This document shows, one piece after another, positions 6,470-9,102 of a DNA stretch of 64,000 nucleotides (positions are counted from its first letter, which is position 1; every line of letters starts with the position of its first letter). Where the stretch lies: the NCBI RefSeq assembly GCF_044324875.1, contig NZ_CP172185.1. One strand, given 5' to 3'. The notes beneath the pieces were generated by a model, which was not told where the DNA came from, did no database searches, and saw only the letters and a program-made list of their open reading frames with translations. The translations under genes and the position numbers were made by a program. Source of the stretch: Escherichia coli. Lineage in GTDB: Bacteria; Pseudomonadota; Gammaproteobacteria; Enterobacterales; Enterobacteriaceae.

Positions 6470-6540
6470 TATTCGATCACGGATTGGCATCGAAGTCCGA
6501 TCAGCGATTCGCATCCATTCGATCAACCGGGAACTTAACT
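6470..6540. repeat. IS21-type terminal repeats, istB-proximal end (two inverted copies: ttggcatcg and a gattcgcatcc variant)
   Basis: Reverse complement matches the repeat unit of the other end; 6525..6540 is the inverted partner of 8941..8956. Confidence 0.65.
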
Positions 6541-6554
6541 TTTTCTACCGCTTT

Positions 6555-7310
6555 TTAACGCGTTTTTTCGCTGCTTTCCACTACCGGGGGATTTTTCCTC
6601 AGTGACTCTCCCTGAAGGACCACTCGGTGTGAGTTATGTACCAGTCTGTCCAGGATGGCATCTGCTGTTGTTGGGTTCTCCATCAGACCATGCCATTTAT
6701 CTACCGGGAACTGGCTTACCACTATCGTGCTGCTTTGTCCGTAACGATCCTCTATGAGCTCCAGAAGGTCATTACACTGGGCGTTACTTAACTGTTCCAG
6801 CCCCAGATCGTCCAGGATTAGAACCTGTATTTTTTGCAACTGTTTCAGATATTTCAGCCAGCTGCCATCAACACGTCCCTGAGCCAGTTGTTCCAGTAAT
6901 CGCCCGGTTCTACAGTACCGGACGCTGTGTTTCTGTCGACATGCCTGTTCGCCCAGCGCATTGGCTATCCAGCTCTTGCCACATCCTGTCGGACCGGTTA
7001 TCAGCAGGTTTTTCCTGTGGGTTATGTAGTGGCCGTTCAGCAGTTCTCTCATCTGTTCAGCCCGCAGACCTCTTGAGGCCGGATAGCGCAGCCCTTCCGG
7101 TGTTGCCTGGTATTTCAGGCCGGCATTTTTTCTCAACCGTGCCACACGGCTGTTTTCCCTGCTCAGAAGCTCGTCATCAACCAGCAGCGTCAGCCTTTCC
7201 TCGAACGACAGTTCGTCGTAGGTCTGAGGCGTTTCCCGCTGCCGTATCAGGCTCCCGGCCATCGCCGGGAGTTTCAGTTGGGTCAGTTTGTTTAACAGGT
7301 TATCACTCAT
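6555..7310 (-). CDS. istB: IstB-like transposition helper ATPase (about 251 aa)
   Basis: Walker A motif GPTGCGKS; start at MSDNLLNKL overlapping the end of istA. Confidence 0.8.
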   Translation of the reverse strand: MSDNLLNKLTQLKLPAMAGSLIRQRETPQTYDELSFEERLTLLVDDELLSRENSRVARLRKNAGLKYQATPEGLRYPASRGLRAEQMRELLNGHYITHRKNLLITGPTGCGKSWIANALGEQACRQKHSVRYCRTGRLLEQLAQGRVDGSWLKYLKQLQKIQVLILDDLGLEQLSNAQCNDLLELIEDRYGQSSTIVVSQFPVDKWHGLMENPTTADAILDRLVHNSHRVVLQGESLRKNPPVVESSEKTR

Positions 7311-7326
7311 ACTGTTGTTCCTTCTG

Positions 7327-8862
7327 TCAGTGGTAGTAGCCCGGACCACGCAGGTTTTCATGCTCTGAAGCATATGCCGGATGTTGTTCGCCCTGGCGGG
7401 ATAATGGAAGCTCCAGGTTCTCCCGATGGTGACGCAGCAGATTGTCGATAAAGCGTCTGTCAGGGGCGTTATAGTGCAGGGCAACGTAACAGGCCTTTTC
7501 CAGCCGTTCCGGGCCGTATTTTTTCTGAAGTGCCAGCAGCCCCAGAACTGCACGATAAGCCAGTTCCGGATGGGGTTTTGCCTTCAGCATGGATTCAACC
7601 ACCCGGCCTGTGGACGGGCCCGTACGTTTTCCCTGCTCGATCAGGCGTTCCGGTGTCCATGTCCCGTGCTGCCGGTGGCGCTCTGGCATGTGAAGCGGAT
7701 TGGTTGTGTGTTTATATTCATGTGTGCTGCGCGGATGTTGCGCCACACACTGCCCCTTGTGCCAGAGCTGTACCACCGACTGCCCCGCCTTCAGTGACAG
7801 ACGCTGACCGACCAGTTCGTGTGGAACGGAGTACCAGTGACGGGCATATTCAACGTGGTAGTCAGGGCCAACCTTCACAGCTTTGTATTCCGTGTATTCA
7901 TAAGGTGCCAGAGGCAGCGGAGAGAGTGCTGGCGCATCCAGTATGCGGAAGCGTTCTGCACGGGTTTGATTGCCGTACCCCTTCATTGGCCGGTTATTCA
8001 TGTCTGTCAGTAACTCCCTAAGGCGCGCATTCAGCGCCCTGAGCGTGTGGAAGGTTTCATTACGGATGCGGGCAAGAAGCCATCGTTCAACGATGAGGAC
8101 GCCGTTTTCTGCTTTTGGTTTATCTTTAGGTTTGCGTGGTCGGGCCGGGATGATAACCGTGCCATAGTGCTCAGCCAGTGCCTGATAACTGTCGTTGATG
8201 ACAGGCTCATATCGATCGGCCTTTTTCACTGCGCTTCTGAGGTTATCGGGGATGAGCAGCTTCGGTACGCCGCCCAGGAAGGTCAGGCAACGGCTGTGGG
8301 CATTTAACCATGACATCATGTCCTGACCTTCGCACGCTTCAACGTAGGTATAGTTGGACGCCCCCATTACGGCCACGAAGATTGCCACGCGGCGTATCTC
8401 ACCGGTGTCCGGATTAATAACAGGAACCGTAGGACCACAGAAGTCGATAAAAAGCTTTTCGCCGGCACGATGCTCCTGGCGCATGGAGAGACGTCGCGTT
8501 TTTTTCCACTCCCGGTAGCAACGGCAGAAGTGCGAGTATCCCATCGCTTTGTTACCCGCCTGTGCCTTGTATTCCATCCACAACAGTTGCCGCGTCACAC
8601 CTGGTTTTCTCATTTCCGTATCGAAGTACAACATGTCAGGCATTACAAGCTCTGATGCAAAGGTGTCTTTGGGCGGAAAAATGAGTTTCTCCAGCGTGTC
8701 ATGGGATATATCAGCAGGTAATGGCCATGACAGAGAAGAGGCTTTGAAGCGGGCAAGAACCTCAAAAACGGTTGAGGCGCTGATGTGTAACGTCAGTCCG
8801 ATACAACGGTTAGTCAGCTTCTTGTCGAACTTGAGCTGAAGGATCTTAAAACAGGTTTCCAT
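7327..8862 (-). CDS. istA: IstA-like DDE transposase (about 511 aa)
   Basis: Large ORF immediately upstream of istB on the same strand; start placed at METCFKILQ. Confidence 0.75.
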   Translation of the reverse strand: METCFKILQLKFDKKLTNRCIGLTLHISASTVFEVLARFKASSLSWPLPADISHDTLEKLIFPPKDTFASELVMPDMLYFDTEMRKPGVTRQLLWMEYKAQAGNKAMGYSHFCRCYREWKKTRRLSMRQEHRAGEKLFIDFCGPTVPVINPDTGEIRRVAIFVAVMGASNYTYVEACEGQDMMSWLNAHSRCLTFLGGVPKLLIPDNLRSAVKKADRYEPVINDSYQALAEHYGTVIIPARPRKPKDKPKAENGVLIVERWLLARIRNETFHTLRALNARLRELLTDMNNRPMKGYGNQTRAERFRILDAPALSPLPLAPYEYTEYKAVKVGPDYHVEYARHWYSVPHELVGQRLSLKAGQSVVQLWHKGQCVAQHPRSTHEYKHTTNPLHMPERHRQHGTWTPERLIEQGKRTGPSTGRVVESMLKAKPHPELAYRAVLGLLALQKKYGPERLEKACYVALHYNAPDRRFIDNLLRHHRENLELPLSRQGEQHPAYASEHENLRGPGYYH

Positions 8863-8965
8863 AGTGCTCCTGGATTTTCTCTTTCTGGACATTGACGTCT
8901 CCACTGGTTTAAACACGGCAATGGAGACTGTGGTGAAAAGAGTTAATTCCCGGAGTGACTGGCAG

Positions 8966-9102
8966 GATGCCAATCAATGATCGGAAGCATGCCAAATCGT
9001 GATCGATTGTGATGCCAAACTGTGATCGGAGATGGATGCCAAATCATGATCGATTCGAATGCCAAACTGCGATCGATTCAGATGCCATTTTGCACTCGCT
9101 GG
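8966..9102. repeat. IS21-type multi-copy terminal repeats, upstream (istA-proximal) end: six imperfect direct copies
   Basis: Copies starting near 8967, 8988, 9011, 9034, 9058, 9081, each containing ATGCCAA followed by TGATCG. Confidence 0.75.

Follow-up and report, generated by a model that had tools for sequence, protein, structure and literature searches.

An ISSso4-type insertion sequence of the IS21 family in the autotransporter pseudogene ycgH of Escherichia coli

The DNA analysed here, referred to as the window, is a stretch of 64 kb in which the autotransporter gene ycgH lies between pdeG/ymgF and ymgD/ymgG/minE, as in E. coli K-12. The listing of open reading frames for positions 3000-13000 revealed two tandem minus-strand frames inside this gene. 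They are carried by an element of which one copy is present in the whole window (Table 1). The element contains istA and istB and nothing else, a tandem arrangement without cargo that is characteristic of the IS21 family. The start codon of istB (ATG at 7310) is situated 16 nt past the stop codon of istA at 7327, on the same strand. The first-pass annotation, which was made from the sequence alone, had described an istA of about 511 aa and an istB of about 251 aa with a Walker A motif, in tandem on the minus strand, and PGAP assigns the same lengths to both genes on identical copies elsewhere. A second in-frame ATG of istA is located at 8892, 10 codons upstream of the annotated start, so that alternative products of 521 aa and 511 aa would be possible. 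A Shine-Dalgarno-like sequence stands ahead of each of these ATGs (8860-8895, minus strand), GGAG for one and AGGAG for the other.

Table 1. Features of the interrupted ycgH gene and of the element inserted in it (positions within the 64-kb window).
Feature	Position	Strand	Description and basis
5' part of ycgH	4259..6455	+	Passenger domain, autochaperone and first half of the beta-barrel; compared with K-12 and with the intact gene of strain 2012C-4221; Pfam
Target-site duplication, copy 1	6450..6455		CTCGCT; direct read; single CTCGCT at the empty site (intact ycgH, L009)
Complete IS21-family IS (ISSso4-type)	6456..9094	-	2639 bp, 52.6% GC
Element termini	6456..9094	-	5'-TGCAAAATGG...GGAATACGCA-3', of the type 5'-TG...CA-3'
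Right (istB-distal) terminal region	6456..6514	+	Terminus and two inward-facing motif copies (6474-6514), the second with one mismatch
istB, AAA+ helper ATPase	6555..7310	-	251 aa; Walker A GPTGCGKS 106-113, Walker B LILDD 164-168; NF038214, PF01695
istA, DDE transposase	7327..8862	-	511 aa; D140, D206, E252; NF033546; coordinates as in PGAP WP_045147483.1
Left (istA-proximal) terminal region	8967..9094	-	Terminus and five inward-facing copies of CGATC-N5-TTGGCAT (8967-9075), spaced by 22-24 bp
Target-site duplication, copy 2	9095..9100		CTCGCT; direct read; empty-site comparison
3' part of ycgH	9095..9566	+	Second half of the beta-barrel, including the duplicated CTCGCT and ending in ...VGLKYKF and stop; reconstruction, alignment

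Family models were used to characterize the two proteins. IstA reached 284.4 bits against the IS21-family transposase model NF033546 (cut-off 160), and IstB reached 256.6 bits against the IS21-family helper-ATPase model NF038214 (cut-off 200), the E-values for the two proteins being 1e-85 and 2e-77. Moreover, IstB matched PF01695 (IstB_IS21) with 204 bits, the cut-off being 24. In Pfam, IstA scored above the cut-off of Mu-transpos_C_2, and its score against rve was 32.0 bits, slightly below the gathering score of 32.6. The membership in the IS21 family, which had been proposed from the reading frames, is therefore borne out by scores above the curated cut-offs for both proteins.

In IS21-family elements, the ends contain a number of direct repeats at intervals of about 23 bp (PMC10122671), and such repeats were found at both ends of the present element, five on the left and two on the right. 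Seven copies of the 17-nt motif CGATC-N5-TTGGCAT are present in the window at no more than one mismatch; all of them lie in the element ends, all are inward-facing, and their spacing is 22-24 bp. The mean number of occurrences expected by chance, determined by shuffling, was 0.63, with a maximum of 3. This excess of the end motif, together with the E-values of the two proteins, places the IS21-family call far beyond chance. The motif copies are presumed to be the repeats to which IstA binds. The requirement of IstA is for at least two end repeats plus a terminal 3' CA (PMC10122671).

The extent of the element was determined by comparison with copies present elsewhere. Used as a query, 6456-9094 gave full-length matches (1-2639) of 100% identity on numerous chromosomes and plasmids of E. 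coli, in unrelated contexts. In 13 other copies, the flanks diverge precisely at both proposed ends, which defines the element as 2639 bp long. Read directly in its own orientation, the element begins with TGCAAAATGGCATC... at 9094 and ends with ...GCGGAATACGCA at 6456, and thus has the TG...CA termini of the IS21 family. The limits of 6470-9102 set in the first-pass annotation have to be replaced, since the identical full-length copies fix them at 6456 and 9094.

Both ends are directly abutted by a perfect 6-bp duplication, CTCGCT, in place of the 4-bp duplication of CGCT that had been suggested earlier. The latter, combined with ends at 6470 and 9102, was rejected, as 14 bp of the IS terminus would then count as flank and the reading frame would be broken. 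The frames had seemed not to line up across the junction because the right-hand CGCT (9097-9100) was paired with the CGCT at 6465-6468, which is inside the IS terminus. With the corrected ends, translation across the reconstructed site is continuous, from ...AKGATVSL directly into EAGYGFALNK... and through to the terminal ...VGLKYKF and the stop codon. Target duplications of 4-8 bp are given in the ISfinder description of the IS21 family, and the 6 bp observed here were confirmed against empty sites.

The empty site was reconstructed as 800 bp by joining 6056-6455 to 9101-9500, with one CTCGCT kept. At least 13 complete E. coli genomes contain this sequence in one piece and without a difference (800 of 800 positions); the matched gene is annotated there as 'autotransporter YcgH' or 'ECIAI39_1904 family autotransporter adhesin'. 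In an IS-free relative (GCA_900482385.1, draft, denoted L009), the alignments of the two flanks overlap by exactly 6 bp (local blastn). The flanks, taken from the beginning as fragments of one interrupted gene, are thus contiguous in uninterrupted ycgH homologues. The intact YcgH protein has 887 aa, with the autochaperone at 410-526 and the autotransporter beta-domain (PF03797) at 606-865. The CTCGCT duplication corresponds to nucleotides 2193-2198 of the gene, in codon 733 of 887, and the insertion splits the YcgH beta-barrel roughly in half. The placement of the element in the ycgH pseudogene, as originally reported, is therefore correct, but its placement between the passenger domain and the barrel is not, since codon 733 falls within the PF03797 domain.

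The same comparison bears on the manner in which the element came to its present position. An IS may also mark the junction of a rearrangement, formed by recombination between two copies or by an adjacent deletion, and such events do occur with the ISSso4-type element. Among the copies compared for the target duplication (L003-L008 and L012-L018), 11 have one, with a length of 6 bp in six copies, 5 bp in two, 7 bp in two and 4 bp in one. The two further copies, both located on plasmids (L004 and L008), are without a duplication, a state that points to recombination of copies with each other or to deletions next to them. At ycgH, however, the same 6 bp stand at both flanks, and the flanks joined with one copy of them give intact ycgH exactly. 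The rearrangement reading is refuted by this empty-site match, and its probability is practically nil. The stretch 6456-9094 is almost certainly a single intact ISSso4-type copy of the IS21 family that entered ycgH via simple transposition.

The insertion is not the only lesion of ycgH in the window. Alignment to intact ycgH revealed a -1 frameshift, in which a run of five A is reduced to four at about 5848-5851. The gene is 97% identical to ycgH of K-12 and differs from it in its lesions, as the K-12 pseudogene is characterized by a 15-bp deletion and a 1-bp deletion and is free of any IS. These differences agree with the earlier opinion that the window does not come from K-12, and K-12 as a whole is not known to have IS21-type elements. 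The frameshift is common to IS-free relatives, unlike the lesions of K-12, which indicates that ycgH was inactivated independently in different lineages.

The distribution of the frameshift also informs the order of events. The exact frameshifted N-terminal YcgH product of 534 aa is present in 84 blocks of the assembly collection. At the three displayed loci, which stand for the 24 contigs read, the downstream part of ycgH is uninterrupted, and in local blastn all three proved free of the IS at the insertion site. L009 shares the -1 frameshift of ycgH and differs from the window by one mismatch over positions 1-6455 and by none over 9095-14508, a flank of about 11.9 kb in total. The existence of so close a relative that has the frameshift and is without the IS means that the insertion is recent and struck an already dead gene. 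The frameshift came first and is the more widespread of the two lesions, and the IS arrived very recently. The opposite order, in which the IS insertion inactivated ycgH first and the frameshift followed, would be in line with the fact that disruption of the beta-barrel by the IS would by itself abolish function. It is nevertheless very unlikely, given the 84 blocks with the frameshifted product and the IS-free state of the three displayed loci. Precise excision, by which IS-free genomes with the frameshift could derive from an ancestor with the IS, is unlikely in DDE insertion sequences. With the frameshift taken as the earlier event, the insertion was probably neutral, because ycgH was already frameshifted.

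The positions 9101-34000 were also compared with the 5426 complete RefSeq E. coli genomes, among which the best identity was 99.3% over 24.9 kb. Several Logan read-set assemblies, as well as the draft GCA_900482385.1, are nevertheless almost identical to the window. The source lineage of the window seems to be absent from the complete-genome set.

The element at 6456-9094 is an already known, named and ordinary insertion sequence. ISSso4 was first named in Shigella sonnei and is common on E. coli chromosomes and conjugative plasmids. The copy of ISSso4 on pCT is likewise 2639 bp long and has a 6-bp target duplication, and it is identical to the element of the window at 2632 of 2639 positions (99.7%, 7 mismatches). 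According to Zhang et al. (PMC6361801), the IS located there in pCT is ISSso4. WP_001282653.1, to which the IstB protein is identical, bears the PGAP label 'IS21-like element ISSso4 family helper ATPase IstB', but the label given to IstA is the generic 'IS21 family transposase'. In a copy with 96% identity, found on a plasmid of E. albertii, IstA does receive the ISSso4 name. The name ISSso4 is accordingly used here by sequence resemblance, that is, for the near-identity to the pCT copy and for the PGAP label of IstB. Related copies are found on plasmids of Escherichia (427 records), Salmonella (31), Shigella (22), Klebsiella (13) and others, and most of these plasmids are conjugative.

The region 6300-9300 was scanned for promoters and terminators. 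No sigma-70 consensus promoter was found in it upstream of istA, and the counts of both promoters and terminators were at the level of shuffled sequence. The lack of a recognisable istA promoter is in keeping with the low basal expression of the IS21 family. In IS21, a promoter is created when the ends are abutted. The missing promoter is the sole weak point that would speak for an old insertion that has decayed and lost its mobility. Such a relic is extremely unlikely in view of the intact istA and istB frames with their catalytic residues, the absence of any mismatch to copies in several unrelated replicons, and the perfect target duplication. Moreover, L009, whose flanks of about 11.9 kb show one mismatch to the window, is without the element. 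The intact copy at 6456-9094 is, judging from its sequence, probably competent for transposition.

IS21, the prototype of the family, originates from plasmid R68.45 of Pseudomonas aeruginosa and mostly generates 4-bp target duplications. It shares with the element of the window the istA-istB operon, the TG...CA ends, several direct repeats per end and a short target duplication. The element of the window differs from IS21 in the larger number of repeats at its left end (five internal repeats and the terminus) and in the modal duplication of its type, which is 6 bp. Two proteins, a transposase and a cointegrase shorter by 8 residues, are produced by IS21 (PMC10122671), and the two ATGs of istA in the window, 10 codons apart, possibly resemble this pair.

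The structurally studied member of the family, IS5376 from Geobacillus stearothermophilus, is distant in sequence. Its IstA (PDB 8q4d/8b4h) aligns with IstA of the window over the DDE domain and the beta-barrel (E=6e-14), with D206 opposite D187, E252 opposite E233, and D140 in the first conserved position; E233 of IS5376 IstA is catalytic (PMC10122671). The N-terminal HTH region of the window's IstA and its C-terminal part of about 140 residues (past 373) fall outside this alignment, and the protein is 511 aa long, compared with about 400 aa in the structurally studied member. The IstB of IS5376 (PDB 8q3w), on the other hand, aligns with IstB of the window over the whole length (E=4e-24), and both Walker A and Walker B are conserved.

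In biochemical work on the family, the ends with their repeats are paired by an IstA tetramer, which cuts at the 3' CA (PMC10122671), and ATP-bound IstB decamers force the target DNA into an S-shaped bend, besides recruiting IstA and activating it (PMC11208146). By analogy, IstA of the ISSso4-type element would bind the 17-nt repeats, and its tetramer would bring both ends together and cleave at the 3' CA. ATP-bound IstB decamers would bend the target DNA and recruit IstA, and strand transfer staggered by 6 bp, followed by repair, would then leave the CTCGCT duplication. Transposition in the IS21 family is dependent on IstB and involves intermediates with abutted ends (tandem intermediates). 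It is conceivable, although rather unlikely, that the ISSso4-type element uses a transpososome somewhat different from that of IS5376. This could be reflected in the asymmetric repeats (five internal ones on the left and two on the right), in an IstA longer by about 110 residues, and in the two Shine-Dalgarno-preceded starts, which might give a transposase/cointegrase pair.

The junction between ycgH and the element was also searched for in other genomes. With a query of 300 bp of flank and 300 bp of IS, no genome with both halves was found among the 5426 complete E. coli genomes. The exact junction 28-mer was absent from both the GTDB species representatives and the metagenome contigs, and an exact 39-mer of the IS left end had no match in GTDB species representatives, so that the host range is seen from the plasmid matches alone. 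Since it is absent from all genome sets searched, the junction identifies the source strain, and its practical value is that of a marker. The significance of the insertion is otherwise small, as it concerns a common, named IS in a gene that was already a pseudogene. The corrected ends and the 6-bp duplication provide a clean annotation of the locus.

In some matches of the junction search, the similarity extended into the flank by up to 20 nt. A shared target was considered as the source of these extensions, and in the one match that was checked (H46/L019) the extension proved to be a partial resemblance at a different insertion site. The copy concerned, in E. coli G1/2 (NZ_CP060083.1, about 792000-794650), is 99.4% identical to the element of the window, has a frameshifted istA and interrupts a hypothetical gene that is unrelated; the similarity between its flank and that of ycgH covers about 20 nt and appears to be due to chance.

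Downstream of ycgH, a second autotransporter, similar to ypjA/EhaD, has been reduced to a C-terminal beta-barrel remnant at 10781-11224 (ycgI-like pseudogene), which is all that is left of it in the window. Other strains possess the ypjA/EhaD-like gene in intact form, longer by about 3 kb (in L002 from 6211), and the alignments there are in two pieces.
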